This document shows positions 11,843 to 54,303 of a DNA stretch of 64,000 nucleotides, piece by piece. The stretch lies in IMG/VR virus record IMGVR_UViG_3300042539_001740. One strand, given 5' to 3'. Position 1 is the first letter of the stretch, and every line of letters begins with the position of its first letter. The position numbers were made by a program, and so were the translations under genes. Below the pieces are notes generated by a model, which saw only the letters and a list, made by a program, of their open reading frames with translations, was not told the DNA's origin and ran no database searches. Source of the stretch: a virus (lineage: Duplodnaviria > Caudoviricetes).

Positions 11843-12607
11843 CTATAGGTAAGTAAAATTTTTACATTTTATTTCATTTGGATACCAACCTTTTTCGGGT
11901 TGATTATAGTTTAACCAAAATTTAGGTGCTATTGTTAATTCTTTTTTATTCAACCATGCCGCCCACCATGAAAATGTTGATGCTGATATTATACAATATT
12001 TTGAAAAAAATAGAACTTTAAAATCAGTTATGACATCATTAGATATTATCTCAATATTATCAAAATACGATTTGGATAATTCGACATCATCAGTCACAAT
12101 AACAAAAGATAAATTTTTATTGTGTTGTTTTATTTCGTTAATTGCTTTTTCATAATATTTTTTAGGAATTAACCAATTGTTCGTTCCTATTTTATTATCA
12201 CCTCCTCTGATGTGAATATAACAAAATTTGTCAATAGGATATTTAGATAATATTTCATTAGTTTTTTCACAACTTTCAATTTTGAACCATTCAGTTATTA
12301 AATTTTTATACTTAGAGTAATATTTTTCTGTTTGGAAATAACCATTTAAATTTGTAAAATCTTTTACCCTGAAAATATTTTCATCATAATTTTGTTCAAA
12401 ACTTTCATAATAGTTGTATTTGACAAAACCATCAGATTCTCCTAAATCAATATTGGGAAAACATTTTTTTAAATGTCCACTATATGGTATATAAAATTTG
12501 TAATTATTTTCCATTGCAACTATACGACAAATTGAATATTGGAACATATGGTTACCAAGAGCAATGTTTTCCTCAACAAAAACTTTATTTAAACCAACTG
12601 TAATCAT
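11843..12607 (-). CDS. Alpha-1,2-fucosyltransferase-like (GT11)
   Basis: LGNHMFQY, GYFQTEKY, HIRGGD, STFSWWAAWL. Confidence 0.85.
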   Translation of the reverse strand: MITVGLNKVFVEENIALGNHMFQYSICRIVAMENNYKFYIPYSGHLKKCFPNIDLGESDGFVKYNYYESFEQNYDENIFRVKDFTNLNGYFQTEKYYSKYKNLITEWFKIESCEKTNEILSKYPIDKFCYIHIRGGDNKIGTNNWLIPKKYYEKAINEIKQHNKNLSFVIVTDDVELSKSYFDNIEIISNDVITDFKVLFFSKYCIISASTFSWWAAWLNKKELTIAPKFWLNYNQPEKGWYPNEIKCKNFTYL

Positions 12608-12609
12608 TT

Positions 12610-13335
12610 TTAAAATTCTTTTAACATTTCTTTTATACTTGGGTACATAGTGAAATTTTGGGAATCCTCATTTATTTCTTCCTTAGCATCCATCAAAATT
12701 ATTCCCCTTGCTGCATCTTCAGGAGTCATATACATATGATAACCAAACATTTTTATATGTTCACTATTTGTGTAAGGTGTGGTCAAATCTCTACCATCAT
12801 AAGAGGAAAGTTTTAACCATTTGTAGGCTTGCTCGTCATTTGTTAGTATCATTCCACCTTTACCAATCGGAATTATCTTTTTAATTTGAAAAGATAAAAC
12901 TTGTAGTGCATCTCCACCAACAAACATATTTTTAGTGAATCTACCTGCCCCATCCCAAATTCTAGTATTTTTTAGTTGATAAATCCCTTTCCATTCTACA
13001 TCTTCAATTTCAAAATCTAAACCAGAATGTTTTATTTGCATAGGGACTGAAATATATGTCCTATCAGGTATTATTATTTTGTTTTTACCATCGAGTTCCC
13101 CAATGTGTTGTAGATACTTGAGACTTAAGAAAATACCATTGGAGCAACAATCTACACTCACAGCATATTTACAAGCAGAAAAGTCAGCTACTTTTTTCTC
13201 AAAAATATCGATTACTTCTCTTGGGTCACTCCATTCATAACCTAATTTTTTAATTAAATCCAATTCAGGTCTTTGTAGTTCTTTAGGTATCTTCCCCAAA
13301 GGCCAAACATTATACTTATATTTGTTTTCACTCAT
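12610..13335 (-). CDS. Short DegT/DnrJ/EryC1 PLP-dependent sugar aminotransferase
   Basis: AVSVDCCSNGIFL, SFQIKK..IGKGGMILTND. Confidence 0.8.
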   Translation of the reverse strand: MSENKYKYNVWPLGKIPKELQRPELDLIKKLGYEWSDPREVIDIFEKKVADFSACKYAVSVDCCSNGIFLSLKYLQHIGELDGKNKIIIPDRTYISVPMQIKHSGLDFEIEDVEWKGIYQLKNTRIWDGAGRFTKNMFVGGDALQVLSFQIKKIIPIGKGGMILTNDEQAYKWLKLSSYDGRDLTTPYTNSEHIKMFGYHMYMTPEDAARGIILMDAKEEINEDSQNFTMYPSIKEMLKEF

Positions 13336-13855
13336 TATTATATCCCATTTTTTTTGCGTTTTCTATTATTTTTGTAGGATTTATTTTTTTTACTAATTTA
13401 GCTGGATTACCCTTATAAACACCCCATTCTTCAGTATCTCCCATCAATAAACTACCGGCAGTTAACAAAACACCTTTTCTTAATATTGTTCCAGGTAAAA
13501 CAATTGCGTTAGTACCTATGTTTGAAAATTCCTCCATAATTACAGGTTTTGTTATTTGGTTACCTTTCAATTCTTTCGGGATTAGTACACCAAATAGTCC
13601 ACTTTCATCAAATCTGTCTGATGAACAAATTATCCTTACACCAGCCATAATATTATTAAATCCTTTTACAATGAACTCACTATTTATACCACCTATACAA
13701 GTGACATAGGGTGATATATGAATATAATTACCTAAGGTCAATGAAGTTGTACAATAGAATCCTTTATCAATTGCAATATGATTACCCATTTTCACAAGGT
13801 GAGGACGTTTTATTACAACCCCATCTTCTATTATAACATCTTGCCCTATTATCAT
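13328..13855 (-). CDS. Hexapeptide-repeat (LbH) acyltransferase; start revised to 13855
   Basis: IGQDV-type hexapeptide repeats, IGTNAIVLPG, GNPAK; ATGA overlap with the upstream stop. Confidence 0.8.
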   Translation of the reverse strand: MIIGQDVIIEDGVVIKRPHLVKMGNHIAIDKGFYCTTSLTLGNYIHISPYVTCIGGINSEFIVKGFNNIMAGVRIICSSDRFDESGLFGVLIPKELKGNQITKPVIMEEFSNIGTNAIVLPGTILRKGVLLTAGSLLMGDTEEWGVYKGNPAKLVKKINPTKIIENAKKMGYNNE

Positions 13856-14364
13856 TTCCAACCTGTTAATTGTAATGTATATCGCATATCTTGTCCAATA
13901 TTTGCCGCCATATGTTTTGTATTTCCATACCATGCCACAAAAGTACCTGCTTTATAGTTAAAAAAAGGTTGACCATCAACTTCAAAATAGTGTCCACTTT
14001 TCCAATCCTCCAAAAAGATTAAAACTCTATGGATTTGATTTAATTCCAAATTGAATTTTTTTCTATACACATTATAGTGGTCACTATGTGTGGGTAATAT
14101 AACCCCTGTTTCCATACGATAATAACAAACACCAATGTCTTTTAGACCAAGATTTTCTTCTACATATTTTACAAACTTATCTGTCCAAATTGGATGGTTC
14201 TCGCCAAATGGACACATCATGCCTGAAAATAACTCAACATCTTGTTTATATCCTAAATTACGCCAATTTTCGATATCACTTTGGTTGTTAAAAATTTCTC
14301 GTTTATAATTTAAATTTTTAAATTCGTCATCCCAAAATTTTTCTATTTTACCTTGACTCCACAT
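13852..14364 (-). CDS. 2OG-Fe(II) oxygenase-like protein
   Basis: HxD (THSD), distal His (TKH) and Arg (DMR) on a jelly-roll pattern. Confidence 0.7.
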   Translation of the reverse strand: MWSQGKIEKFWDDEFKNLNYKREIFNNQSDIENWRNLGYKQDVELFSGMMCPFGENHPIWTDKFVKYVEENLGLKDIGVCYYRMETGVILPTHSDHYNVYRKKFNLELNQIHRVLIFLEDWKSGHYFEVDGQPFFNYKAGTFVAWYGNTKHMAANIGQDMRYTLQLTGWK

Positions 14365-14378
14365 ATTTTTATAATTTT

Positions 14379-15620
14379 TTAAGAAATTCCGATTTTTATT
14401 ATTTCGACTTCATTTTGTTCTTTCATAAATCTCCATGGGTCAATAACTATTGAACCTGATGGAAACTGATAATCCAAAAAAGCATCGTGATTCGTTCCTA
14501 TGAAAAATATTGATTTTTTATTGATTGGTGGTTCTTCTGAATCAATCCAAGGGTCAAACATTTCAACGATTATATTTTTTTCATCTAAAATATTCTTCAA
14601 AAGAATTGCTGTACTACCAACAATCAAGTTTGTTTCCTTTTTGAAAGTTTTTCCCAATATTACTATTGGTAAATTATGTTGATTTCTTTTTTCAATAAGT
14701 AAATCAGCTAACCATTCTGTTTGTTTTTCTCTACATTCCATCAAATTACTATACCAGTCAAAACTCAGATTTTCTTTTTGTGCTAACCAAGAAAGAGCTA
14801 TGTTGTCTCTTGGATGGCAACCACCACCATCCCCCATACCACCTAAAAGGTATTTTGTACTTATTAATCTTTGGTTGGCCATAAATAGACCTTTCATTAC
14901 ATTGTCACAATTTATGTTGTTTAATTTGTGTGATAACTCCATAATTGTGTTAGCCAAACAAATTTTCATAGTGATGTACGTATTATAACTTACTTTTATC
15001 ATTTCAGCTTCCTCTATAGTACATTTATAAATTGGTTTATTATGTAATGTTGAATAAAAGTTTGTTACTACATTGTAAGCATTTTCATCATCAACACCAA
15101 ACAAAACAAATTCAGGGTTCATAAAATCATTTATAGTTGTTCCCATAGCAATAAAAAATGGGTTGTAACATAATTTAAGTTTATCACATAATAATGGTTT
15201 TATTTGATTTCTAATCGTTCCTGGTAAAACTGTTGAAATAATTACAACTATTTTTTCGTTTGGTTGATTGTCTATTTCCTTGGAAAGGTTTTTCATACCC
15301 TCAATCAAAAAAGAATAGTCAAAATCCACTCTTTCTTCAGGAATTCTGGTAACTCCCTCATATTTTTCATTATGTGGGGTTTGAATTGGTACAAATATAA
15401 TATCTGAATTATTTACTACTTGAGAGATATCAGACCATATAATACTATGAGTATCCAAAAGTTCTTGGGCGCCCTCCTCTCTATAAGGTAATTTTTTTTC
15501 ATCAAGAATTTTTTTAACTTTTTTATCTATATCAAAACCATAAATTTTATGTCCTTTTTTTTCGATAGCTAAAGCACAAGGTAATCCTAACTTACCCAAA
15601 CCTAAAAAACCTATATTCAT
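14379..15620 (-). CDS. ugd: UDP-glucose/GDP-mannose dehydrogenase family protein
   Basis: GLGKLGL Rossmann motif, YNPFF, EMIKVSYN, GGGCHPRD catalytic Cys. Confidence 0.9.
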   Translation of the reverse strand: MNIGFLGLGKLGLPCALAIEKKGHKIYGFDIDKKVKKILDEKKLPYREEGAQELLDTHSIIWSDISQVVNNSDIIFVPIQTPHNEKYEGVTRIPEERVDFDYSFLIEGMKNLSKEIDNQPNEKIVVIISTVLPGTIRNQIKPLLCDKLKLCYNPFFIAMGTTINDFMNPEFVLFGVDDENAYNVVTNFYSTLHNKPIYKCTIEEAEMIKVSYNTYITMKICLANTIMELSHKLNNINCDNVMKGLFMANQRLISTKYLLGGMGDGGGCHPRDNIALSWLAQKENLSFDWYSNLMECREKQTEWLADLLIEKRNQHNLPIVILGKTFKKETNLIVGSTAILLKNILDEKNIIVEMFDPWIDSEEPPINKKSIFFIGTNHDAFLDYQFPSGSIVIDPWRFMKEQNEVEIIKIGIS

Positions 15621-17356
15621 TAATCAATTATTTTTTTTTGATACATTGGTATTGGTATCATTTTATGTTTATTTTTTTTGTTCAAATCTCTAAATATTTC
15701 TAAAGTATTTTTTTCATCAAATGACAAGTTTGTTTCATCGCCATGAAAATTCATTGCCCATTCTAATTTAGAATATGTTGTACCAATTTGTTCCTCATCA
15801 GTTCTGTTATCTTCCCACAAACCATCGGTGGGACTTGTATAGATAATATTTTTATTAATTTCAAGTTTTTTTGCAATTTCAATCACTTCAGTTTTGGTTA
15901 AGTCAGCTATTGGTGAAATATCAACACCACCATCACCATATTTTGTGAAAAAACCAATACCAAAATCTTCGATTTTATTACCAGTTCCAACAACTATACT
16001 ATTCAAATTACTAGCTATGTGATATAAAGTAACCATCCTTAATCGTGATTTTGTGTTAGCTAAAGATAAACTTTTAGTAAAGTTATTATTTATATTTACG
16101 TCATCTAAAAAAGTTTTATAAACAGATGTTAAGTCGATTTCCAAACTTTCAACATTTTTATAATTTTCTTTTAACCAAGAAATATGTTTTCGAGCTAATG
16201 AAAGTTGTTCTTCATTTCTATTAATTGGTAACGAAACTACGTAGGTTTTAAGTCCCGTAAGAGCACACAATGTAGATGTAACAGCAGAATCCACACCACC
16301 AGAAATGCCAATAACTAAAGACATATTAATATTTGTAGCGTAGTTTTTAATCCACTCAATGATTTCTAAATATTCAAACTCACTCAAAATTTTGTTGTAA
16401 ATTTTTTTTATATCTAATTTATTTAAATCAAAATTATTAATTTTCTCAAAAATGTGAATATTTGATTCTAAAAATTCTTTTGTAATTGTATTATAACTAT
16501 CAACTAATAATACTGGTATATTTTGAAATAGCTCCTCGAAATTTTTATTTTTAATAAGTACTGGTACGCGTTTCATATAAATTGTTTCCCAAACTCTATA
16601 ACAATCACAATTTTTAGCATTACCATCAACAGAAAGTACATAAAAGGATTTTTTAATTTCTTCTAAATAATTTTTATAATCGTCATCACCAATTGATTTT
16701 GGTGTTTGGATGTCACACCAATCAAATTGTTTGAAATAATTATTAACTTGGTTTCTAAAAATATTAGACCCAATACTATGGTTGATGTATAACAAGTTTT
16801 GTGGAGACTCAACTTTATTAATATATTCCTCTATTATATTTAATCTGTTGTCATTTTGTGATACTTTTCTTGGTAGCCCAAATGGGAATGGTCTTACAAT
16901 TTCATTTATATGAATATTCGCTGATGAAACATAAATTTTTAAAACATTCTTAGGTATTCTTTCAAATATTTCTTCATCTATATTTGTATCATCTAAACCA
17001 GTAAAAATTATAAAGTTTAAATAATCAAGTTCTTGACATAATTTTAACAAGTCTTGATTAAAAAAGTTATTGTATAATTCTAATTTTTTCGATTTGTGTT
17101 CTTCAAAATTGTTGTTTGGAAATTCTTCCATATTTGTAAAAATAGAAGATATATTTTTTTGTCTTTTATATAACCTTAAATTATCGATAAATAAAGTTAT
17201 ATTCTTTCTACCCTCTTTTTTCCAATCTTCACATTTTTGTAAAAATTCCAAATTATGTTCGTTAGCTATTTTAAGTTCCCATATATCTATACTTGTATGT
17301 GAACCAAAACAATAGTCACAAATTTCCATCAATTTAGTTGGAGAAAATAAATTCAT
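15620..17356 (-). CDS. nadE: Fusion: exostosin/GT47-like N-terminal domain plus NH3-dependent NAD+ synthetase (about 15623-16387)
   Basis: C-half has SGGVDS, NTKSRLRMVTLY, GTGNKIE, FFTKYGDGGVDISPIADLTK, PTDGLW; N-half is paralogous to 17334-18272. Confidence 0.85.
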   Translation of the reverse strand: MNLFSPTKLMEICDYCFGSHTSIDIWELKIANEHNLEFLQKCEDWKKEGRKNITLFIDNLRLYKRQKNISSIFTNMEEFPNNNFEEHKSKKLELYNNFFNQDLLKLCQELDYLNFIIFTGLDDTNIDEEIFERIPKNVLKIYVSSANIHINEIVRPFPFGLPRKVSQNDNRLNIIEEYINKVESPQNLLYINHSIGSNIFRNQVNNYFKQFDWCDIQTPKSIGDDDYKNYLEEIKKSFYVLSVDGNAKNCDCYRVWETIYMKRVPVLIKNKNFEELFQNIPVLLVDSYNTITKEFLESNIHIFEKINNFDLNKLDIKKIYNKILSEFEYLEIIEWIKNYATNINMSLVIGISGGVDSAVTSTLCALTGLKTYVVSLPINRNEEQLSLARKHISWLKENYKNVESLEIDLTSVYKTFLDDVNINNNFTKSLSLANTKSRLRMVTLYHIASNLNSIVVGTGNKIEDFGIGFFTKYGDGGVDISPIADLTKTEVIEIAKKLEINKNIIYTSPTDGLWEDNRTDEEQIGTTYSKLEWAMNFHGDETNLSFDEKNTLEIFRDLNKKNKHKMIPIPMYQKKIID

Positions 17357-18272
17357 ATTTTAAATTGTTTAAATCAAAATTGGACATCTCATCAAATAGA
17401 TGTGAATTATCTAAAAGTAGTTTTTCAGTCACTTCAGAAAAATCTTTCACAAAAAGTACTGGAATATCTTTGTAAATTTCTCTTAAATAACTTGTATCAA
17501 GAACTATTGGTACCCTTTTCATATATATTGTTTCCCAATCTCTGTGACAATCACAACCTATTGCGTTACCATCAGGACAAAATACAAATTTGTGTTTTTT
17601 TAAATTAATTAAATAATTAGAATAATTTAATTTGTTAATTTCTATCGTTACCCAACTTTCATTTCGAAAAGAATCAATTATTTTTTTTCTATTTGGGTTA
17701 GTTATTGAAAAATTTAAATAAGCTAATTTCGTTGGGGTGATTTCAACATTGATTGTTTGTTTAAGAATTTCATGATTATTGTCAAATTGATTTAATTTCC
17801 TTTTTATACCATAAGGTATGGGTACTACTTTTCCACCAAAGGATATTGCATTAGAAGCATAAATTTTTAACACATTTTCTGGAATTTTATCAAAAATTTC
17901 ATCATCTATTGGTGTGTCCTCAAACCCTGTGTAAATTATAAAATTCATATTTTTTATTTGTCCACAAAGGAACAACAAATCATTTTTTAAAAAAAAATCT
18001 GCAACAACTTTATCTTTATAGATGCGTAATTGTTCATTGTTCAATTCACCAGCTGTGTATTTTATACCATCTCTCTTGTACAATCGTATGTTGTCTATAA
18101 ATAAAGTCATATGTTTTTTTCCTTGTTTGATACACTCATCGACTTTATTTAAAAACTCAAAATTTGACAAATTTGCATCTTTTATTGACACTAAACCATT
18201 TTGATATCCTGATTGGTCACCGAATGAATAATCACAATTAATATGAAAAAAAGTGGGTTCTAGTAACTTCAT
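17334..18272 (-). CDS. Exostosin/GT47-like protein
   Basis: HKFVFCPDGNAIGCDCHRDWETIYMKRVPIV resembles the exostosin 'F.LCP.G....HR.WE.L.....P' motif. Confidence 0.7.
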   Translation of the reverse strand: MKLLEPTFFHINCDYSFGDQSGYQNGLVSIKDANLSNFEFLNKVDECIKQGKKHMTLFIDNIRLYKRDGIKYTAGELNNEQLRIYKDKVVADFFLKNDLLFLCGQIKNMNFIIYTGFEDTPIDDEIFDKIPENVLKIYASNAISFGGKVVPIPYGIKRKLNQFDNNHEILKQTINVEITPTKLAYLNFSITNPNRKKIIDSFRNESWVTIEINKLNYSNYLINLKKHKFVFCPDGNAIGCDCHRDWETIYMKRVPIVLDTSYLREIYKDIPVLFVKDFSEVTEKLLLDNSHLFDEMSNFDLNNLKYEFIFSN

Positions 18273-20833
18273 TTAAACAATTCTTTTTTATGTAAATCCA
18301 TTATGGAAATAAATTTAACCCCCATTTCCACTAAATCTTGGTTATTTTTTAATATTTCATCAAAAAAATTCCAAGCCATAACAACCACTAAATCAGGTTT
18401 ATCTGTCTTAAGTTCATTGATACTTTTTATTGGAACTCGAATTCCAGGTATAATTTTGTTAACTTTAAGTTTGTTATCTTCGACAATATAATCTAAGTAA
18501 GTTGAATCAATTCCAAAATAGTTTAAACTTGTGGTAGCTTTAGCTGGTGAACCATAACCAACAATTTTATTATATTTGTTTCTCAACTTATTAAAATTTT
18601 CTCTGACATTTGTTCTTATTTCAGAAACCTTGACCTCAAAATTTTTATAAATTGTTTTATTTTGGATTCCAAAGTCTTGTTCCAACTTTATAAATTTTTC
18701 TACAGAAAAATCTTTGTTGTTGTTTTTACCTACATACACCCTAATAGAACCACCATGTGTATTAATTTCCTCTACCCTGTTAAGAAATAAACCAAACCTA
18801 TCAAAGAATTTAATTAGAGAAGTAATAGTCCAATAGTTTACATGTTCATGATATATATTGTCAAATGTTAGGTCTTCCATTGTTTTAATGAAGTATTGTA
18901 CTTCAACTATAAAGGTACCATCACTCTTTAATATTTTTTTGACACCATTTACAATGTCATCCAATTCATCACTATGTGCAAAAACATTTGATGCTGTAAC
19001 GAGAGACACTTTTCCAAAATTTTCTAAAATTGTATTTACAACATTTGAATTAAAAAAATCATTTATTGTATATATACCATTATCGTTACATAGTTTAGCC
19101 AAGTTTGTTGCAGGTTCAATACCAATAACTTTTATACCCATTTCTTTCAAAGGACTTAAGAAGACACCATCATTTGAACCAATATCAACAACAATAGAAT
19201 CTGAATTTAATTTAAAGTCTTGGACATATTGTTTTGCTGCATTTTGAAAATGTTTTTTGAAGGTTTGTGTTGTTGACGAAGTATACAAGTAGTTACTAAA
19301 CATTTCTGTTGGAGGGGCAACAATAGATAATTGTACATTTTCACACTTGTTACAATGTTTTATTTCAAGAGGATATAGTTTTTCAATGTCTGATTCTGAA
19401 CTTAATAAGTTATTTGCCAAAGGAGAAAGTCCTAAAGACAAAACATCATTTAGTTTTTGATTATTACAGACTCTACATTGATACTTGTAGTTAGATACGA
19501 TTATTTCTTTTAACTTTTCATCCACTAAAATATAAGGTATAGTATGAGTGATACCATAATTTTCATGCTCTCTTTCACCTCGAACTAAATTTAAAAAAAC
19601 AGAATCCTCTAAAAAAACCATTGTATGTGCAACATTTGGTCGAATTACTGATAAGTCACCAGCATTAACGATTCTAGTTTCGATTACTGAATTTGAATCA
19701 GCTAAGTCTTTGGTTACACTTACATATTTACCTGAGATTAATAAACATTTTTGTTCTTGAATTGGATGGTAATGATTTGCACGAATTGTATTAGCTTTGG
19801 ATTCTATATAACCAATTAAATTAATTGGTTCAGTCAATTCATAGTTTAAAATTCTTCCTCTACTATCAACAAATTCTTTGTTTCCTTCGATGAAATATTC
19901 TAACTCTTGAACTGGTTTCTTTTCACTCCAGTTGGTTACCATTTCATCTATTGAGTTTTCAATATTGTAAAGAAAATTAAATCCCTTTGATAAAAGTTTT
20001 TTATTGGAAAGTGTATATCCCAAATTAGGGATTTCATCGTTTGTTTCTAAAATATTAACTTTAGGGTTTATTTTTTTACAAATTTCGGCGACCTCCTTTA
20101 TAGTTAAGTTTTCGTTAGTTATATGAAAAATTTCTTTGTTCATTTCCGATTCTGCTAAAAATTTCATACTTCTCACAACATCTAATATGTTAACTAAACT
20201 TTTGTATTGAACTCCACCAGAAAACAATTTAATTGTCCCATTAGATGAGGTAATTTTAGAAAAAAGATTTGGCATAATGTTTATCCTCATCGTATCGGTA
20301 GAATAACCATAAACAGTACCTAATCTTAAAATAAGATAGTTTAAATCAGAATTAATAATATCTTGTTCAGACTCATATTTACCTTTGGCATATGATAACA
20401 TAGGACAAGGTGGGAATTCTTCAGAAATCTCAAATTTTGTTTCAGTTAAGCCCTCATATACAACATGTGTAGAAGGGAACACCAACTTTGTACTATTGGA
20501 CAAGTTTTTGAGTAGAACTTTTGTTGCATCAACACCATTTCTTTTAATTGTTAAATCTTTTTCGTCATTAGATTCAGTTTTAGTGTAGGCAACATCGGTT
20601 GTACCTGCCAAATGAAAAACAATATCACAATTTTCTAACAACCTTTTCATTGTATCAGTATCCGTAACATCACAATTAATGTAATTTATACCCCAATCTC
20701 GTAGTTGTTTAACTCTTTCGGAAATAAATCTGTTGTCAATAACAATAATTTCTTTGTATCTTGCTTCACCTGAGTATAATTTACAAAGTTCAGTTCCTAT
20801 GTAACCCAATCCACCTGTTATAATAATTTTCAT
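18269..20833 (-). CDS. Three-domain NDP-sugar enzyme: SDR epimerase/dehydratase + cupin + NDP-hexose 3-C-methyltransferase
   Basis: GGLGYIG and YxxxK; RANHYH cupin; CRVC, DIGSNDG, IYHEHVNY, HGGSIR, GYGSPAK. Confidence 0.85.
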   Translation of the reverse strand: MKIIITGGLGYIGTELCKLYSGEARYKEIIVIDNRFISERVKQLRDWGINYINCDVTDTDTMKRLLENCDIVFHLAGTTDVAYTKTESNDEKDLTIKRNGVDATKVLLKNLSNSTKLVFPSTHVVYEGLTETKFEISEEFPPCPMLSYAKGKYESEQDIINSDLNYLILRLGTVYGYSTDTMRINIMPNLFSKITSSNGTIKLFSGGVQYKSLVNILDVVRSMKFLAESEMNKEIFHITNENLTIKEVAEICKKINPKVNILETNDEIPNLGYTLSNKKLLSKGFNFLYNIENSIDEMVTNWSEKKPVQELEYFIEGNKEFVDSRGRILNYELTEPINLIGYIESKANTIRANHYHPIQEQKCLLISGKYVSVTKDLADSNSVIETRIVNAGDLSVIRPNVAHTMVFLEDSVFLNLVRGEREHENYGITHTIPYILVDEKLKEIIVSNYKYQCRVCNNQKLNDVLSLGLSPLANNLLSSESDIEKLYPLEIKHCNKCENVQLSIVAPPTEMFSNYLYTSSTTQTFKKHFQNAAKQYVQDFKLNSDSIVVDIGSNDGVFLSPLKEMGIKVIGIEPATNLAKLCNDNGIYTINDFFNSNVVNTILENFGKVSLVTASNVFAHSDELDDIVNGVKKILKSDGTFIVEVQYFIKTMEDLTFDNIYHEHVNYWTITSLIKFFDRFGLFLNRVEEINTHGGSIRVYVGKNNNKDFSVEKFIKLEQDFGIQNKTIYKNFEVKVSEIRTNVRENFNKLRNKYNKIVGYGSPAKATTSLNYFGIDSTYLDYIVEDNKLKVNKIIPGIRVPIKSINELKTDKPDLVVVMAWNFFDEILKNNQDLVEMGVKFISIMDLHKKELFK

Positions 20834-20844
20834 TAGTTTTTTTT

Positions 20845-21741
20845 TTATTGTTTTATTAAATAATTATATTTTTCTTTGATTAAATCTAACATTTCTGTAG
20901 GATATTGTGTCAAACTAGTTTCTTTCATTTTAGAAAAAAAGAACTCCTGAAATGGTTCAGAATACCCAAACCTATTGTAAACATCAACACCATTTTTGAT
21001 TTTTGTAGCAACATTGTTGAGGTAAAAATCATTATTAAATTCTTGATGTGCGTAGTTCTGAATTTTTGTTTTTACCCTTTCCACTCCACCCATAAAACTC
21101 AAGTGCCAACCACCATCGAATATCTTTTCAAAATTGACTCTTTTGTTCTTAAGATGGGTTAATGATACTTCTTTAGTGTCAGAAAATTTTACTATATAGT
21201 TTCCATACCAATTAGTATGAGCTAAAAGATTTATATAATAATAAAAACAATCTTGCATTAAACAATGATTGTATAAGTTATTTTCTCGTATTTTTTTAAC
21301 AATTTCAGGTTTTGGTATCTCATCTAAGTCTGAAATCATAATTAAGTCGTCATCCTCACAATCCATAAGACCAAACTTAATAAATTCTTTTTGGAGATAA
21401 TCTCGACAGAATGTTGGGTGTTTCTTCAATTCTCCTTCATTTTCTTCGATATCGTATCTTTCGGAAATTTTATTATACGTAAGTGTATATTTATCATTTC
21501 CTATCTTTGTTCCCATATTTAAAATGTCTTCAGGAAAATTATGTTTAATATGTATGATTTTGTCAGAAAATTTGTCAAACATACTTTTGTTTTCTTCAAA
21601 AAATAGTTTTTTGGGATTGTTAGCATGAGATTTAGTTGTTTCACTAATCACAAAATAATCAACAACATCGTACAAAAGTGTCAATCTAATTTCTAATAAA
21701 TCTAATTCATTGTAAAACTGAAAGCAATCGTATAATTTCAT
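20845..21741 (-). CDS. GT17-like glycosyltransferase (beta-1,4-GlcNAc-transferase III-like)
   Basis: YDCFQFYNELDLLEIRL, ISDLDEIP, GGWHLSFMGG...KIQNYAHQE. Confidence 0.8.
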   Translation of the reverse strand: MKLYDCFQFYNELDLLEIRLTLLYDVVDYFVISETTKSHANNPKKLFFEENKSMFDKFSDKIIHIKHNFPEDILNMGTKIGNDKYTLTYNKISERYDIEENEGELKKHPTFCRDYLQKEFIKFGLMDCEDDDLIMISDLDEIPKPEIVKKIRENNLYNHCLMQDCFYYYINLLAHTNWYGNYIVKFSDTKEVSLTHLKNKRVNFEKIFDGGWHLSFMGGVERVKTKIQNYAHQEFNNDFYLNNVATKIKNGVDVYNRFGYSEPFQEFFFSKMKETSLTQYPTEMLDLIKEKYNYLIKQ

Positions 21742-22670
21742 TATAATAAGTTGTTTTCTTTATAAAAGTTTATTGCGTTATTTTTACATTCCTCATAATT
21801 GACCAAATCACCTTCCCTATTCATATAAGAAAAAAACTTAGAATACGAATCACCTAAAGACCAGTAACCATTACTTACATTATGTTTTGCCCAATAAATT
21901 GGTGCTATAGTTAACTTGGACTTAGTATTTAACCAAGCCGCCCACCAACTAAAACTAGAATTAGCGATTATCAAATATTTACTATTGTTTACCAAATAAA
22001 AGTCAAAACCAATATCAAAATGGTAACAAGGAAAATTACCTACGAACCCTTTTGCATAATTGGGGTCATCACTTACAATTATGAATTTCATATTTGGGTT
22101 TATTGTCAACATTTGATTAATTGAATCAGTCCAGTATTTTTTATTTGGTATTAAATTCATCACATTTTTATATTCCCCACCTCTAAAATTAATCACACAT
22201 AAATTATCATCAAGTACAATACCTAATTCTTTAAGTTTTTCGGTGTATGAATTTTCGTATTCATTTTTAAATTTGAACCAACTAATTACATCATTTCTTC
22301 TTTCTAAAAGATAATCTTCGGATTGACTAATAAGATGAACCATAGTATTATCACTAACATTCCATACATTTTCATCGTACATATTAATTAAACAACTATC
22401 ACCATTATAGATATGTTCTTTGTGAAAGTCATAATACTCATTCGGAATTCCTTGATACTTGTTTAGACCTCTTTCGTTTTTTCCATCAACAAAAACTTCT
22501 TTACCAAAATTAACATCTAAAAAGTAAAATTGATTCATACCATTGTAATAGTCGTGTGTTGGTTTCGGATTGACTCCCCATTCGTAGTTATTTTTTTCGG
22601 CAACTAAACGACATATGGTATAATACCACATATGATTTCCAAAATTTCCAGTCAAGTTTGTTGTTATCAT
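21741..22670 (-). CDS. GT11-like glycosyltransferase (divergent)
   Basis: GNFGNHMW, NFRGGE (variant of HxRxGD), NSSFSWWAAWL. Confidence 0.75.
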   Translation of the reverse strand: MITTNLTGNFGNHMWYYTICRLVAEKNNYEWGVNPKPTHDYYNGMNQFYFLDVNFGKEVFVDGKNERGLNKYQGIPNEYYDFHKEHIYNGDSCLINMYDENVWNVSDNTMVHLISQSEDYLLERRNDVISWFKFKNEYENSYTEKLKELGIVLDDNLCVINFRGGEYKNVMNLIPNKKYWTDSINQMLTINPNMKFIIVSDDPNYAKGFVGNFPCYHFDIGFDFYLVNNSKYLIIANSSFSWWAAWLNTKSKLTIAPIYWAKHNVSNGYWSLGDSYSKFFSYMNREGDLVNYEECKNNAINFYKENNLL

Positions 22671-22708
22671 TAACCTATTTTATATATTTTTTTATTTTTG
22701 TTATTTTA

Positions 22709-23380
22709 TTAAAGTATGGTTTCGAAATTTTTGTTGAAGATATAACACTCTAACCTTTCAATTATCCAAGGACTATTTTCATTTTCTAAAAGAAACTCAA
22801 CAATTTTTTTATAGAATTCTTTACTCCTAACCCAAGCTTGTTCTTTTGTTATTACAAAATGTCCTCCTGGTATAAATTCGTATTGGTTTGGGGGTGTGTG
22901 TACATCTGAAAATAAAATTGACCAGTATTGGTTTACATTAATATTTGAACTTAAATCTTGGGGAAAACCATTAGATTGACAAGATAAAACAAATCCACCA
23001 CCAAATTGATTTGATGGATTCATTTTCCATGCCGTGCCGATATTGTTATTATGAAATCCAAAATACCCATCAATAATTAATGAAGCATTGTTATCTATTT
23101 CACTAATATCGGAATTCAAAACCTCTAATAAGTTACCCCAATGGTCAAATGGAAAATCTTGGACAAAAAAAGTATAATCCGACAAGTTTTCATAGTTCAA
23201 GTAAATGTGGTTAAAAAAAGTATGTACACATCTTCCTCTGTTTGGATTCAAACTGATTTCGTTTTTTTGAATCGGAACAACATTTCCTTTTCTATAAATC
23301 GTAATTTTTATTTCAGGACTAATTTCTTTAATCCAATCCAATGGTTTATCATATGCTGAAATAACTATCTCTTTTACCAT
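22709..23380 (-). CDS. DUF3431-like protein
   Basis: IVISAY, N.GR..H...HI..NY..L....F.Q..PFDH, GHFVIT, ERL. Confidence 0.6.
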   Translation of the reverse strand: MVKEIVISAYDKPLDWIKEISPEIKITIYRKGNVVPIQKNEISLNPNRGRCVHTFFNHIYLNYENLSDYTFFVQDFPFDHWGNLLEVLNSDISEIDNNASLIIDGYFGFHNNNIGTAWKMNPSNQFGGGFVLSCQSNGFPQDLSSNINVNQYWSILFSDVHTPPNQYEFIPGGHFVITKEQAWVRSKEFYKKIVEFLLENENSPWIIERLECYIFNKNFETIL

Positions 23381-23382
23381 TT

Positions 23383-24042
23383 TTAAAACTTGATATATTT
23401 GCTATTAGTACCTGAATAGTTATGAAAAACAAAAGGATTAATACTCACATTTTCGGGTAAATCTGTTTCTCTAGAAAAATATTTAGCAACATCAATATCA
23501 GCAAACCTACAACCTTCTTCCAAATATTTGTGTCGATAGTTTACACAAATAAAACCATCCTCATTTGTAAAACCATAAAAAGGTTTCCATTCTAAATTAA
23601 GTTTTATGGGTATATCTAATAGTTTTTTACTTCTTAAAGAGACACTATTTCCTTGTCTAATGATGTTTCCATTTATATCTCTGTATGAAAAATTATCTTT
23701 AGGTAATGGCCAAGGGGCACCAATATAATCATAATCCAAAAATTCATTCCTCCAAGATTCTGGATGTACAACAAAACCATTGTCGTGTATGAGTAGTGCA
23801 AATTCAGTATCAATGTGTTTAGTCAAATTATAAATAATATTGTAGTTCCATTCATCAATATTGGAACTTTTTTCTGTGTATTCGTGAATTATAAAGTCAG
23901 GTAAGTTATCAGGTTTTATATCTGAAGCTATTTTAACTTTACCAAAATTAATACCTTTACAACTATACTCTAAAGCTTTTATTGTTTGTGGTAAACGGAC
24001 ACTAGTTAGTGCAATTAAAGTAATGTTAGGTAAATCAATCAT
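23383..24042 (-). CDS. DUF5672-like putative glycosyltransferase
   Basis: ALLIHDNGF, YDYIGAPW, GNSVSLRSKKL, NED. Confidence 0.65.
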   Translation of the reverse strand: MIDLPNITLIALTSVRLPQTIKALEYSCKGINFGKVKIASDIKPDNLPDFIIHEYTEKSSNIDEWNYNIIYNLTKHIDTEFALLIHDNGFVVHPESWRNEFLDYDYIGAPWPLPKDNFSYRDINGNIIRQGNSVSLRSKKLLDIPIKLNLEWKPFYGFTNEDGFICVNYRHKYLEEGCRFADIDVAKYFSRETDLPENVSINPFVFHNYSGTNSKYIKF

Positions 24043-25405
24043 ATCTTTCTTTTAACATTTTAAATTCATTATCTTTTAAACTTTGAGGTGTAGTATCTGT
24101 TAATCTATTACCCCATGTTCTATTGACAACTGTGATTTCGTTCAAAATTTTAGGAACACCATATTTTAAAAACATTTTTTGATAATAATCACAATCCATT
24201 AACCAATTTAATCCCTCATCAAAAAAAATCAAGTTTTCATTTTTTAACGTTAATCCACTAGGACAACCCATAGTATTATTACCTGTCCATATCCTATCGT
24301 TCCAAATTGGATGGTATAATCTATAAAATGCTACGCCATCATTACTGTGGTAGAATTTTGTCATTAACCATTTTAAATCATCACCTGAGGTCGTAATAAA
24401 ATTATGTTGAATTTTTAGTGATTTTTCATCATACAAAAAATCATCTTGGAATAAGATTTTAATCCATTTACCTTCACACAAAGTCATTGCATTATTGATA
24501 TTTGGTGATATTATACCTCTACCATTTTCATTTTTTTGATATTTCAAAGTTAATTTATTTTTCCACTTGTTTACAACGTTTAGTATAGTATCGTCAGTAC
24601 TATGGTCGGATATAATAACCTCGAAGTCCTTGAATGTTTGATTATGGATAATTTTTAAACTAAATTCTAAAAATTCAGAACCTCTACCATTATATCCATA
24701 GGTGGGAATTGCAATTGAAAAAAAGGGTTTGTTTTCAAGTTTCATTATGTTCATCGTTGTATTTTTAGGTACATAATCAGGAGAACTGATAGGAATTACA
24801 TTTTTAGTTTGTTGTGCTAAATCAAACATAGATTTAGTTTCAGTTCCAACATTATAAACTCCATTTTTTCTTTCGTATATTAATTGTATAATAATTTGAC
24901 CAATTTTATCAACATAATCGAAATTACCAACTTGGTCAATCCAAGCTTTTTCATATGGAAATGGTTTTGGTTTATGTGTGCATCTTATTAACAAATAATC
25001 GTTTGATATTAATTGGACCAAACCATCACCTAATAATTTTGTATAACCATACCAGTTCCTACAATGAACAGGAACATCTTCTTCACTTGCGTTTTCAATT
25101 GAAAATGTATAAACATAATCAGAAGAAATATGAATTAGTTTTATTTGATTAGTATTACAAAACTCTATTAAATTTTTCAAAAAAACACAATTAGTTTCCC
25201 AATGTGGTTCTCGGTTGTCTAAATAAGTGTTCGTGTTGGCAACACAATTAATAATTGTGTTATATTTTTTTGGTGGGATTGTATGGGTAAAGGTATTAAT
25301 AGAAAAATTTTTTCTTTTTCTTGATATACAATCCCAATTAGTTTGTTTTTCTAATTCAGACCCCAACAATCCATCTCCTAATATTAAAACTTTTAGTTCG
25401 TCCAC
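24035..25405 (-). CDS. Fusion: RmlD-like NDP-4-keto-sugar reductase plus GT2 glycosyltransferase
   Basis: GDGLLGSEL, ISSDYV, YGYTK; then FSIAIPTY, IISDHS, ILFQDD. Confidence 0.8.
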   Translation of the reverse strand: MDELKVLILGDGLLGSELEKQTNWDCISRKRKNFSINTFTHTIPPKKYNTIINCVANTNTYLDNREPHWETNCVFLKNLIEFCNTNQIKLIHISSDYVYTFSIENASEEDVPVHCRNWYGYTKLLGDGLVQLISNDYLLIRCTHKPKPFPYEKAWIDQVGNFDYVDKIGQIIIQLIYERKNGVYNVGTETKSMFDLAQQTKNVIPISSPDYVPKNTTMNIMKLENKPFFSIAIPTYGYNGRGSEFLEFSLKIIHNQTFKDFEVIISDHSTDDTILNVVNKWKNKLTLKYQKNENGRGIISPNINNAMTLCEGKWIKILFQDDFLYDEKSLKIQHNFITTSGDDLKWLMTKFYHSNDGVAFYRLYHPIWNDRIWTGNNTMGCPSGLTLKNENLIFFDEGLNWLMDCDYYQKMFLKYGVPKILNEITVVNRTWGNRLTDTTPQSLKDNEFKMLKERYD

Positions 25406-26691
25406 TTTTCCGCAAATACTTTTTTAACATAATCAAACACTTTATCATCATAGTGTGGTGCAGCACCCAAGAAAAAAACTTTATCTAATACTGTATTAGC
25501 TAAAGGATATTTGTCTAAAGAATCTAAGTGTGAATATCCTGGATGTAATAGAATGTTTCCCGCAAAGTAATTTCTAGTTTGTATTTTATTTTCCTCCAAG
25601 AATGAAACTAATTTATCTTTAATAATTTTTGAGTTGCAAACTAGTGGTGTTCCAAACCAACATGTATCAGCTTTATCTAATTGGATAACCCCTTTTACAC
25701 CATCAACATATTTTGTAATGATGTCTTCCATTTTTTTCTTATTTGATTTTCTTCTACTATCTATCTCGTCAAATTTTTCTAATTGTACTATTCCTATTGC
25801 ACCTTGTAAGTCCATAGGTTTCAAGTTATATCCCATTGTTGTAAAAACATATTTATGGTCAATAATACCATCATAGGATTCTAACCAATTATCAAATCTT
25901 TTACCACAAGTACCACAAGAGAGTAAATTAGCCGAACCAACACAATAACAATCTCGTCCCCACCACGAAAAAGAAACAAATAGTTTTTTTATATCAGGGT
26001 TATTTGTACAAACCATTCCACCCTCACCAGTAGAAATATGATGTGCAGGATAAAATGAAGTTGACCAAGCAACATAATAATCACTTAAATCTTTTCCATC
26101 CCATTTAGACCCCAAACTATCACAACTATCACCAATTAATTGTATATTATGTTTTTTACATAGTTCAGATAAAAAATCCATATTCGGAGGATTACCTAGA
26201 ACTGGTGAAACAAAAATACCTTTAGTTTTCTCAGTAATTTTACTTTCAATTTGAGTCAAGTCAAAATTTAGGGTATCATATTCAATATCAACAAATACTG
26301 GAACTAAATTATTTTGAACAATTGTTGAAATGGTTGTTGGAAACCCAACAGGAGAAACGATTATTTCATCTCCATCATTCCAGCCAAAATATTTTTTAAG
26401 TGCGGCAATTAAAACTAAATTAGCAGAACTACCAGAGTTGACCATATGAGCAAACTTAACTCCAAATTTTCTACTAAAATAGTATTCGAATTTACTAACG
26501 TTTTCGCCTGTCACAACCCACTTACCAAAAATTAAAGATTTTATTGCTGCCATAATTTCTTTTTCGTCCCAATATGGTCCAGAATATAATACTTGGTCTC
26601 TACCTGCTTCAAATTTCTGATTATATAAGTATTTTGGTTTATTATCCTTCAAGTACTCTGATAAATTGTCTACTAAATTTTGAATTTCCAT
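25393..26691 (-). CDS. rfbH: CDP-4-keto-6-deoxyglucose 3-dehydrase (E1, RfbH/DdhC)
   Basis: VNSGSSANL, SFYPAHHISTGEGG (His in place of the PLP Lys), WGRDCYC...CGTCGKRF, RNYFAGN. Confidence 0.88.
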   Translation of the reverse strand: MEIQNLVDNLSEYLKDNKPKYLYNQKFEAGRDQVLYSGPYWDEKEIMAAIKSLIFGKWVVTGENVSKFEYYFSRKFGVKFAHMVNSGSSANLVLIAALKKYFGWNDGDEIIVSPVGFPTTISTIVQNNLVPVFVDIEYDTLNFDLTQIESKITEKTKGIFVSPVLGNPPNMDFLSELCKKHNIQLIGDSCDSLGSKWDGKDLSDYYVAWSTSFYPAHHISTGEGGMVCTNNPDIKKLFVSFSWWGRDCYCVGSANLLSCGTCGKRFDNWLESYDGIIDHKYVFTTMGYNLKPMDLQGAIGIVQLEKFDEIDSRRKSNKKKMEDIITKYVDGVKGVIQLDKADTCWFGTPLVCNSKIIKDKLVSFLEENKIQTRNYFAGNILLHPGYSHLDSLDKYPLANTVLDKVFFLGAAPHYDDKVFDYVKKVFAEKWTN

Positions 26692-26710
26692 TTTTTTTTA
26701 TTTTTAATTT

Positions 26711-27487
26711 TTAAATTTTGAACCATGTTGTTGGGATTAAATTTTCGGTTTCTTTTGGTCCTTTTATCCCGAACCATTTTTTTGGTGTTATTATTTTTTT
26801 ATTTGGATTTTTATTTAGGTATGCCCCCCACCAACTAAAACTACTATTCGAAATTATTATGTTATCTACAAGAGTCATTAGGGTCAAGTCCACAATTTCA
26901 TTACTACCACTATAATAAAAAAAGTTTTCACCTATGAACTCATTTTTTACCCAATTGATGTCATCGGATATAAAAATATAACAACATTTACCTAAAATAT
27001 CAATCCCCTCATAATAATATTCGTTTGAACAAGGTGGGTGAAATTCAGAATTCAAAAGATAATCCCCACGTCTGACATGTATAACACTTGTAGGTAAATT
27101 ATTGGAGTTTATTTCATTTATGAAGTTTGTAAGTTCATTTATAATATCTTCATTAAAATCAAATAAATTTATAATTTCATTTTTAAAATCCTCAAAATAT
27201 TTCTCACTCTGAAAATATCCATTTAGAAGAATATTATTATGATATTCGATTTCAGTATAACTGAATTTTGGTTCATAATAAATTTTGGAGGGGGTAAAAT
27301 TATTTATATTGGTAACTTTTTTGAATAAAGTGTTTTGATACTTCGTAGATTTGAACCCTTGTAAAGGTGTGAAACATTTATCAAAATCAAAAACTGCTTT
27401 ATCATTATTTCTTAAAGCTAACGCATATGCTGCAGCTATTTGAAACATTTGATTTCCTAACCCACCTTGTAAAAAACTTGAAACCAT
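26711..27487 (-). CDS. Alpha-1,2-fucosyltransferase-like (GT11)
   Basis: GGLGNQMFQ, GYFQSEKYF, HVRRGDY, NSSFSWWGAYL. Confidence 0.9.
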   Translation of the reverse strand: MVSSFLQGGLGNQMFQIAAAYALALRNNDKAVFDFDKCFTPLQGFKSTKYQNTLFKKVTNINNFTPSKIYYEPKFSYTEIEYHNNILLNGYFQSEKYFEDFKNEIINLFDFNEDIINELTNFINEINSNNLPTSVIHVRRGDYLLNSEFHPPCSNEYYYEGIDILGKCCYIFISDDINWVKNEFIGENFFYYSGSNEIVDLTLMTLVDNIIISNSSFSWWGAYLNKNPNKKIITPKKWFGIKGPKETENLIPTTWFKI

Positions 27488-27488
27488 A

Positions 27489-28148
27489 TTAATTAGTTTT
27501 ACTTACTTGTTTATCATGAATTCTATAAAATAGCAAAGGTTCTTTTATAATATGTAATTTAGCACCATTTCTGTAACTTCTAATCCAAAGATTTTTATCT
27601 TCTCTTGGTATTTCTTGAGGTATATAAGGACCGAATTCTAACCAAAACTTTTTGGTATATGCAACACAAGGGTGAGCTAATGGTGTGATATCCATATTAA
27701 ATAAAGTTTCTAAATCGTGATTTCCTAAACCAACTGGGGCACTAAAACTATAAATCCCATTTGTTTCTTTTGTAAAAACATATTCTGAGGAAACTATATC
27801 AATATCTCCATTTAAAATGTCAATTTGTTGTTGAAATCTATTTAGAGTATAAAAATCATCTAAATTTATATTAAAACAAATATCATAGTTTTCTTCTTTG
27901 AACACTAAGTCAAGAAGAAAATTCATTGCTTCGGCATGATTGTTCATCTTAACTTTGAAAAAAAAATGTTTTTTATTGATAGTAAATATTTCTTTCAAAT
28001 TTGAACTATCGTCACCATAATTCAATTCAAAAATATCAAAATTAGTATAAGTTTGGTTTAAAATTGTATCTAAACACTTTTGAATCCACTCTTTTTTGTA
28101 GATTGAAAATATATTTGAGTGATATAAAATACAACAAGTTTTCATCAT
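27489..28148 (-). CDS. GT2-like glycosyltransferase
   Basis: CLDTILNQT, NLDD, RFQQQ, HPCV, ED..LW, YRIH. Confidence 0.7.
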   Translation of the reverse strand: MMKTCCILYHSNIFSIYKKEWIQKCLDTILNQTYTNFDIFELNYGDDSSNLKEIFTINKKHFFFKVKMNNHAEAMNFLLDLVFKEENYDICFNINLDDFYTLNRFQQQIDILNGDIDIVSSEYVFTKETNGIYSFSAPVGLGNHDLETLFNMDITPLAHPCVAYTKKFWLEFGPYIPQEIPREDKNLWIRSYRNGAKLHIIKEPLLFYRIHDKQVSKTN

Positions 28149-52997: not shown

Positions 52998-53052
52998 TTT
53001 AATTAAATCTATTCTTTCCATCCAATTTTTATATTTTTTGTATAAAAATTCA

Positions 53053-54303
53053 ATGTCAACTATATTCGTACAAATAGCGGCCTTTAGAGACCCCCAACTT
53101 AATCCCACCTTACAAGATATGATTTTCAAAGCCAAGTATCCTGAGAACTTGAGGGTTGGTATTTGTAATCAATATAATGAAGAAGATAATTTCAATTTAG
53201 ATGAATACAGAAATGATGATAGATTTAGAATCATTGATGTGTTAGATAAGGAATCATTGGGTGTATGTTGGGCAAGACATAGTGTGCAACAATTATATTC
53301 AGGTGAAACATATACATTACAGATTGATTCTCATATGAGATTTGAACAAGATTGGGATGTTACCTTAATTGATATGATTAATAGTTTACAGTTAAGTGGT
53401 TACAGTAAACCATTGTTAACTGGTTATGTATCTTCATTTGACCCAGATAATGACCCTGAAGGTAGAGTGAATGAACCTTGGAGAATGACCTTTGATAGAT
53501 TTATACCTGAAGGTGCTGTATTCTTTTTACCTGAAGTTATACCAGGATGGCAAGAACTAACAAGTCCAATTCCCGCAAGATTTTATTCAGCTCATTTCTG
53601 TTTTACATTAGGTGAGTTTAGTAATGAAGTTCAACATGACCCTGAATACTATTTCCACGGAGAAGAAATTAGTGTTGGTGTTAGAGCATTCACTCACGGA
53701 TATGATTTATTCCATCCACATAGAGTTGTTATTTGGCACGAGTATACCAGAAAAGGTAGAACGAAACAATGGGATGTTGATAAGGTTTGGTTTAAGAAGA
53801 ATGAAAAATCACACGCAAGAAATAGAAGATTGTTTGGTATGGATGGTGAAATATTTAACCCTGAAGAGTTTGGTAAATACGGATTTGGTACTGAAAGAAC
53901 TTTAGAAGATTATGAGAAATACGCAGGTATTAAGTTTAATAAAAGAGGAGTACAAAAATATACAACAGATAAATACTATCCACCAAATCCATATAATTTT
54001 GAGACAGAGGAAGATTATTTAAATAGTTTTGCGAGCGTGTTCAAACATTGTATTGATGTTGGATTTACATCTGTACCTGAAAAAGATTATGATTTTTGGG
54101 TTGTAGCATTCCACGACTCAAAAGATGAAACGATGTTTAGACAAGATGCTGACATTAATGAAATAAACAGAGTAATGCAAGACCCTGATGGATATTGTAA
54201 GATATGGAGAGAGTTTAATACGATTCAAAAACCAGCATATTGGGTTGTATGGCCACATTCAAAATCAAAAGGGTGGTGTGATAGATTAACTGGTAATTTG
54301 TAA
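53053..54303 (+). CDS. GT60-like polypeptide/hydroxyproline N-acetylglucosaminyltransferase; start revised to 53053
   Basis: IFVQIAAFRDP, GVCWAR, LQIDSHMRF..DWD, YFHGEEI, RAFTHGYD. Confidence 0.75.
   Translation: MSTIFVQIAAFRDPQLNPTLQDMIFKAKYPENLRVGICNQYNEEDNFNLDEYRNDDRFRIIDVLDKESLGVCWARHSVQQLYSGETYTLQIDSHMRFEQDWDVTLIDMINSLQLSGYSKPLLTGYVSSFDPDNDPEGRVNEPWRMTFDRFIPEGAVFFLPEVIPGWQELTSPIPARFYSAHFCFTLGEFSNEVQHDPEYYFHGEEISVGVRAFTHGYDLFHPHRVVIWHEYTRKGRTKQWDVDKVWFKKNEKSHARNRRLFGMDGEIFNPEEFGKYGFGTERTLEDYEKYAGIKFNKRGVQKYTTDKYYPPNPYNFETEEDYLNSFASVFKHCIDVGFTSVPEKDYDFWVVAFHDSKDETMFRQDADINEINRVMQDPDGYCKIWREFNTIQKPAYWVVWPHSKSKGWCDRLTGNL

Follow-up and report, generated by a model that had tools for sequence, protein, structure and literature searches.

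The fusion gene and its two halves

The 64,000-nucleotide stretch analysed here (the window throughout) belongs to IMG/VR virus record IMGVR_UViG_3300042539_001740, which comprises 194,498 bases at a CheckV completeness of 66% and comes from lake metagenomes. Its gene set is that of a large tailed phage, with portal-, terminase-, capsid- and sheath-like frames recognised by eye and PhoH and a sigma-like gene found with profiles, and no RNA data set is listed as containing the stretch; the gene described below is carried by a freshwater (lake) jumbo phage. Within a glycan gene cluster, a single open reading frame (ORF) encodes a GT114/A075L-like glycosyltransferase (GT) joined to an ammonia-dependent nicotinamide adenine dinucleotide (NAD+) synthetase, NadE. 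A stand-alone transferase paralogue precedes this fusion gene and a nucleotide-sugar 6-dehydrogenase gene follows it (Table 1), the stop codon of the fusion overlapping the ATG of the dehydrogenase (TAATG).

The frame is open across 578 codons, and the original prediction of one continuous frame joining a paralogue-like domain to a complete NadE was borne out. The AlphaFold model of the protein has a mean predicted local distance difference test score of 81 and a predicted template modelling (TM) score of 0.77. No linker separates the domains, the last transferase helix continuing into the first NadE helix in both the alignment and the predicted model. The junction is spanned in eight other protein clusters at 47-73% identity, six of which (47-65%) cover 97-100% of the fusion protein, the two others being partial sequences that cross the junction. 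In three of three relatives' contexts examined, the fusion lies directly before the dehydrogenase. Contigs from four runs also traverse the junction with zero differences, a support not counted as independent because the runs are flagged as possible sources of the same DNA.

Far from being absent from all relatives, the junction is thus read through by divergent homologues, which rules out an assembly or lost-stop artefact. Another account holds that the gene mainly yields two proteins. It draws on the fact that stand-alone halves are the rule and on an in-frame TTG at Leu324, a possible internal start for a 255-residue NadE; the start suspected near 16387 is indeed present, but neither a start residue nor a linker is conserved there in the homologues, and the placement of the fusion straight before the dehydrogenase in three genomes also stands against it. 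An artefact or a two-protein gene is very improbable, and on sequence grounds the fusion is genuine. Two neighbouring genes of the phage glycan cluster would have been joined into a two-enzyme chain.

Residues 1-321 share 41% identity with the 312-residue paralogue (E 9e-74) and match A075L of chlorovirus PBCV-1 (PDB 8q8i/8avq; E 2e-13), a beta-xylosyltransferase of family GT114 that was once annotated as exostosin/GT47 (PMC11571054). Foldseek comparison of the predicted domain with A075L gave an E-value of 1e-11, TM scores of 0.63-0.65 depending on the target and a root-mean-square deviation of 2.8-3.1, and the additional matches in a search of viral folds were solely other viral glycosyltransferases. 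The catalytic base of A075L is Asp73, and Asn148, Arg158, Arg208 and Glu211 bind the donor (PMC11571054). These residues align with D123, N192, R201, R254 and E257 of the phage protein, and N202 aligns with N246; D123, R201, N246, R254 and E257 are invariant in 14 homologues and N192 is nearly so. The GT-B fold, the catalytic Asp and the donor-binding Asn/Arg/Arg/Glu set are therefore kept, whereas overall identity is about 24%, a region of about 115 residues extends N-terminally beyond the sequence alignment, and the phage domain comes from a bacteriophage and is fused to NadE. The front half is predicted to be an A075L/GT114-type glycosyltransferase with a GT-B fold and an inverting mechanism. 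The earlier label of an exostosin-like domain stands as far as it rests on the sequence and fold match to A075L; the Pfam exostosin profile PF03016 does not match the fusion protein at E 0.1, so GT114-like is the better name. RXYLT1_C gave a weak match only in the paralogue and one homologue, and no uridine diphosphate (UDP)-xylose synthase was identified beside the transferase gene.

Residues 331-567 score 165.4 bits against TIGR00552 nadE (curated cut-off 63.65). The domain carries the motifs SGGVDS, NxxSRLRM, GTGNxxE, FFTKYGDGGVD, PTDGL and HK, with the PP-loop SGGxDS and ATP/Mg residues present, and is of the single-domain form, a profile search having found no nitrilase-like glutaminase domain in this half. 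We take R438, T458, E463, K472, D479, K488, T510, H564 and K565 to be ATP-, Mg- or deamido-NAD-binding positions in E. coli/B. subtilis NadE; R438, K472, D479, H564 and K565 presumably correspond to the deamido-NAD-binding E. coli residues R140, K173, D180, H260 and K261. The nine positions are conserved at 97-100% in 86 dereplicated dehydrogenase-linked viral NadEs and at 93-100% in 62 cellular NadEs. The latter five are all present in the fusion and 98-100% conserved in both sets, and no pocket column separates the viral from the cellular sequences.

The phage NadE falls into a clade (TIGR00552, PF02540, phrog_11189) with members from Flavobacteria, Marinimicrobia and Marine Group II (MGII) archaea, sharing with the cellular members all motifs, 49-59% identity and identical pocket residues, and differing in being phage-encoded, fused to a transferase and tied to a dehydrogenase. 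These cellular relatives are the sole full-length NadE found in their genomes, several of which are incomplete metagenome-assembled genomes, and have housekeeping surroundings. In the tree, Marinimicrobia-like and MGII archaeal NadEs nest among viral ones, so the two pools look interchangeable; an approximately unbiased (AU) test did not reject the grouping of the linked viral sequences in a single clade (p 0.095), so repeated capture of nadE from cells is not shown. Since the pocket is unchanged, the cellular relatives are sole copies and they nest with viral sequences, NAD+ synthetase activity is probably kept, and the back half is probably an active ammonia-dependent NAD+ synthetase. The best PDB match of this half is 3fiu, at 32% identity. 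In Francisella NadE (NMN synthetase), nicotinic acid mononucleotide (NaMN) is preferred and the adenosine subsite is blocked.

The fusion occurs in 1 of 60 distinct GT114-like viral loci, and in the same clade NadE is found joined to five or more further glycan domains, among them GT2, an FkbM-type methyltransferase, GT25 with an epimerase, an unnamed domain and a dehydrogenase. This rarity and the variety of partners argue for repeated joining of neighbours within glycan clusters and for no special transferase-NadE machine; the earlier emphasis on an exostosin fusion was misplaced. A special partnership of transferase and NadE was also considered as the main story and rejected, as 59 of the 60 loci are unfused and the transferase mostly lies 6-10 genes from the dehydrogenase.

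Table 1. Position, strand and basis of assignment of features in the window
Feature	Position	Strand	Basis
Glycan gene cluster, co-oriented, ~18 kb	11843..30046	-	Profile searches
GT11 gene	11843..12607		Similarity to Pfam-annotated homologues
DegT-like aminotransferase, 241 aa	12610..13335	-	
Nucleotide-sugar 6-dehydrogenase, C-H-PRDN subtype (type A), start overlapping fusion stop	14379..15620	-	Profiles, alignment
Fusion gene, GT114/A075L-like glycosyltransferase + NH3-dependent NadE, 578 aa	15620..17356	-	ORF, profiles, homologues, AlphaFold model
C-terminal NadE domain, residues 327-578	15620..16378	-	Profile, motifs
In-frame TTG, Leu324, possible internal start for 255-aa NadE	16385..16387	-	Sequence
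N-terminal GT-B domain, residues 1-326	16379..17356	-	Alignment, fold match
Stand-alone GT114/A075L-like paralogue, 312 aa, overlapping fusion start by 23 bases	17334..18272	-	Sequence comparison
SDR epimerase + cupin-like middle + sugar C-methyltransferase, 854 aa	18269..20833	-	
PF11397 GlcNAc-transferase + GT25 gene	53038..54303	+	

The glycan cluster further contains three GT11 genes, GT17, GT2s, DUF3431, DUF5672, an acetyltransferase, RfbH-like and short DegT-like aminotransferases, and a gene joining a short-chain dehydrogenase/reductase (SDR) epimerase, a cupin-like part and a C-methyltransferase, which is 61-64% conserved in related phages. Forms comparably short to the DegT-like aminotransferase recur in 34 dehydrogenase loci, so its shortening is a conserved family trait.

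Linkage of nadE with a PRDN-type dehydrogenase

NadE-linked dehydrogenases carry C-x-PRDN at the catalytic cysteine, where C-x-PKD is usual, and split into two deeply separated types, A and B. The original prediction had coupled the fusion to a UDP-sugar dehydrogenase; the coupling stands in the gene overlap and the linkage is general, but the UDP-sugar substrate is not established because the best solved relative of the window's enzyme is a guanosine diphosphate (GDP)-mannose 6-dehydrogenase (157 bits, versus 140 for UDP-glucose dehydrogenase). A GDP-mannose-3,5-epimerase-like gene, recognised by motif, accompanies type B in 46 of 66 loci and type A in 0 of 22, and epimerase fusions exist. 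As this gene goes with type B only, the two types may make different sugar products, with NAD+ required by both.

The NadE-centred sample comprised 103 viral or phage-like loci with 8-10 kb flanks and 78 cellular loci with 6 kb flanks. A dehydrogenase lies within six genes of nadE in 88 of the former, adjacent in 59, and in none of the latter. In the least biased co-occurrence sample, the 60 distinct viral loci chosen on a GT114-like gene, 18 hold both genes, 3 the dehydrogenase alone, 4 NadE alone and 35 neither (Fisher p 8e-9, which overstates the association because the loci are not phylogenetically independent). Where both are present they are always 1-2 genes apart, and 12 pairs are adjacent against 1.9 expected. 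Dehydrogenase-centred counts, which are biased in favour of NadE since linked genes served as queries, place NadE near 53 of 80 type B and 14 of 79 type A viral dehydrogenases and near 20 of 80 type A in metagenomes; nadE is the commonest adjacent neighbour of the dehydrogenase (38/56, versus 23/74 for the epimerase). The NadE clade has matches in more than 500 stretches of IMG/VR; a profile search of proteins clustered at 50%, which gives no gene context, contributed nothing decisive. The conserved unit is NadE with the PRDN dehydrogenase, not the transferase with NadE. In the other 15 of the 103, the stretch examined contains no dehydrogenase, and nadE sometimes stands beside groEL or a kinase-like gene. 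A minority of phage nadE genes come straight after groES-groEL-like genes, with no dehydrogenase there, as at L117, L131, L133, L135 and L142, and a kinase-like gene of 179-181 residues follows nadE at L127, L141 and L173.

Carriers of the pair range from T4-like cyanophages and pelagiphages to freshwater jumbo phages and podophage-like genomes. The pair is present in six cultured cyano- and pelagiphages (S-SSM7, HTVC008M, Bellamy, S-SCSM2R, P-TIM68 and Sf-FS3, of Synechococcus, Prochlorococcus and Pelagibacter), in which nadE is 48-51% identical to that of the window and lies beside or one gene from an annotated UDP-glucose dehydrogenase in a glycan cluster, differing in being stand-alone and annotated just as NAD synthetase. 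NadE is paired with dehydrogenases of either type, and its tree shows 12 or more changes of partner type. The two genes also differ between loci in order and distance (+1, -1, +-2, opposite strand), and the genes around them turn over completely. This variation and phage range speak against the two genes having been acquired once together as a hitchhiking block without a functional link, which is quite improbable even though many loci come from related phage groups and the AU test leaves a single viral clade standing.

NadE-dehydrogenase fusions occur in two NadE lineages, P0044 and P0151. In P0151 (L432 1556-3922), a single sequence, a NadE of an otherwise NadD-fused lineage is joined to a PRDN dehydrogenase, and its pocket shows D-to-A and E-to-V changes, with several residues lost that NadD-fused relatives keep; among individual proteins it is the strongest candidate for a genuine change of substrate. 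A third lineage, P0178, shows the link once, its nadE being separated by two gene positions from a fused epimerase-dehydrogenase gene in a polysaccharide cluster of a cellular genome. At L431 (8439-15699), a cellular polysaccharide cluster with an ATP-binding cassette (ABC) exporter, an epimerase-dehydrogenase fusion is followed by an uncharacterised 171-residue gene and then nadE, with NUDIX and isochorismatase-family genes upstream on the other strand. Structure prediction for the NadE domain together with the dehydrogenase scored 0.00 and was used neither for nor against a role.

In podophage-like genomes, where no glycan island surrounds it, the pair comes after genes for DNA polymerase A, a dCMP deaminase and a kinase and after thymidylate-synthase-like and MazG-like genes. 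The order at L203 1-8159, L207 64-6794, L241 1198-9406 and L202 3690-12036 is C5 methylase, MazG-like, the 341-residue phrog_14998, kinase, thymidylate-synthase-like, dCMP deaminase, DNA polymerase A, dehydrogenase and nadE. The arrangement resembles a cluster for DNA hypermodification, possibly with a uronate or uronamide as the added group.

PRDN dehydrogenases are rare in cells (2/401, 7/301 and 1/401 genomes sampled), where they are paired with a methyltransferase and occur without NadE; none was found beside eight cellular PRDN dehydrogenase regions. On a giant-virus-like contig (L441 10001-12103), a fusion joins a PRDN-type dehydrogenase to a methyltransferase, and the stretch contains no nadE. 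Three bacterial regions (L434 4181-11710, L435 1070-8153 and L437 4327-11560) have a PRDN dehydrogenase and methyltransferase after flagellin-like genes recognised by eye, which suggests flagellin glycosylation with an uncharacterised sugar. In fusion-bearing relatives an SDR gene (L001 12968-13897), absent at that place in the window, follows the dehydrogenase; its best PDB match is 6vo6 (E 3e-50), which we take to be a Campylobacter GDP-heptose enzyme. The literature covered, which was incomplete, yielded no description of the fusion or of a linkage between nadE and the dehydrogenase.

Possible roles of the pair

The favoured reading, to which a probability of roughly 45% is given, is that NadE would serve as a dedicated NAD+ supply to the neighbouring dehydrogenase. 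During infection, NadE would convert host deamido-NAD to NAD+, which would feed the dehydrogenase, presumably the cluster's stoichiometric user of free NAD+ at two per uronic acid, and the resulting glycan would probably decorate virion proteins or the host surface. Such a supply fits the unchanged pocket, the pairing with both dehydrogenase types and the stoichiometric use of NAD+ by the dehydrogenase, and the eight cellular PRDN regions and one giant-virus-like locus without an adjacent NadE also count in its favour. Several points weigh against it. The reoxidation of NADH (reduced NAD), which dehydrogenase turnover needs, is not done by NadE. Nicotinate phosphoribosyltransferase (NAPRTase, PF04095) and NadD-like (PF01467) genes were not found in the 66%-complete genome, Adps and Namat profiles lying outside the search, and NAPRTase was not found in a complete 326-kb relative; NadE alone can therefore only pull on host deamido-NAD. 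Moreover, such tight adjacency with fusions usually marks consecutive pathway steps, and the dehydrogenase-fused P0151 is the very protein that lost pocket residues kept by its NadD-fused kin.

Amidation of the dehydrogenase product is a real possibility, though a tentative one. NadE would adenylate the carboxylate of a nucleoside diphosphate (NDP)-hexuronate and add ammonia to yield an NDP-hexuronamide, which a glycosyltransferase would then place on a virion, surface or DNA glycan, and NAD+ synthesis may persist as a second activity. The viral proximity of nadE to the dehydrogenase (88/103) against its cellular absence (0/78), the co-occurrence and tight spacing in transferase-chosen loci and the frequency of nadE as adjacent neighbour are all consistent with this, as are the pair's presence in a DNA-modification setting without a glycan island, the fusions P0044 and P0151, the third lineage near an epimerase-dehydrogenase fusion and the pocket changes of P0151. 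Many dehydrogenase loci lack NadE, as expected for an optional tailoring step, and a GDP-sugar would suit the purine subsite. On the other side, the pocket is indistinguishable from that of sole-copy housekeeping NadE, the carboxylate of an NDP-uronate lies several bonds nearer the diphosphate than in deamido-NAD, and P0151 rests on one sequence. Where NadE is absent, an N-terminal motif search found no AsnB-type amidotransferase in its place, so no mutual exclusion is seen, and we know of no NadE that amidates a sugar.

O-antigen clusters offer dehydrogenase-amidotransferase pairs as a parallel, among them WbpO/WbpS and WbqA/WbqG. The Bordetella WbmC/I/Z system follows the same logic, a uronate-forming dehydrogenase with an ATP-dependent carboxylate-amidating enzyme, and bacterial amidotransferases of this kind amidate uronates and are thought to act on the sugar nucleotide (PMC2615507). 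The O-antigen enzymes are glutamine-dependent and asparagine-synthetase-like, whereas the phage NadE consists of one domain and keeps its NAD pocket unchanged; profile searches found neither glutamine amidotransferase nor asparagine-synthetase domains in the fusion protein, although a like function may still hold. Across aquatic phages, the pair might, about as tentatively, form a portable two-gene module in which a housekeeping-type NadE acts as nucleotide-sugar amidase with the PRDN dehydrogenase, providing NDP-uronamide for virion, surface or DNA glycosylation, fused in this phage to a possible user transferase.

A general NAD+ booster or a counter-defence against NAD-depleting systems, the location in glycan clusters being incidental, is improbable. 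The homologue in cyanophage S-SCSM2R, ORF242, has been interpreted in print as counter-defence, and NMNAT is encoded elsewhere in that genome (PMC12801897), but ORF242 itself adjoins dehydrogenase ORF243. In favour of a booster or counter-defence role are the 15 viral loci without a dehydrogenase, some by groEL or a kinase-like gene, and a NAPRTase-family gene elsewhere in one of four related phage records. Phage NAD+ pathways reportedly include NARP1 and NARP2, attributed to Osterman in 2024 (cited in PMC12801897). Some 'NAD-jumbo phages' carry pncB-nadD-nadE clusters and, like the window's phage, have an NAD+ biosynthetic enzyme in a large genome; they also carry a UDP-glucose dehydrogenase, whose linkage to nadE is not noted in the passages covered (PMC11662467). 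Unlike the pncB-nadD-nadE and NARP clusters, the window's nadE has no NAD-salvage partner in its flanking genes by profile searches, and NAD-salvage families are absent among the frequent neighbours of nadE loci. The products of SIR2/TIR effectors are nicotinamide and ADP-ribose, from which NadE by itself cannot restore NAD+, and the placement of nadE beside the dehydrogenase is far from random. Of the functions first proposed, NAD+ supply and uronate amidation both survive, while counter-defence is poorly supported, given that no NAPRTase or NadD-like gene was found and that nadE tracks the dehydrogenase.

Other features of the phage and significance

Elsewhere in the window, a PF11397 GlcNAc-transferase (E 1e-70) and a GT25 gene follow glycine-rich, tail-fibre-like genes, which hints at phage-encoded protein glycosylation. 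Outside it (G000 C1 77921-83159), a tail-sheath-like gene, unusually long at 1197 residues, is followed by a 518-residue zinc-finger/endonuclease-like frame; judged by eye, the gene is possibly intein- or intron-interrupted.

Both domains of the fusion are from known families, and phage nadE is already annotated in databases (phrog_11189). Phage nadE is now read as counter-defence or as a generic metabolic boost; in this common aquatic clade it is bound to one dehydrogenase subtype within clusters for glycans and DNA modification. If NAD+ supply holds true, nadE would serve to provide cofactor to just one glycan enzyme. If amidation holds true, a core metabolic enzyme would provide a new route to uronamide sugars, predicting a novel residue in viral glycans and perhaps also a novel modification of DNA. 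The nadE-dehydrogenase pair, which is widespread and readily testable in cultured phages and with small soluble enzymes, suggests a putative role in the construction of viral glycans and not in anti-defence.

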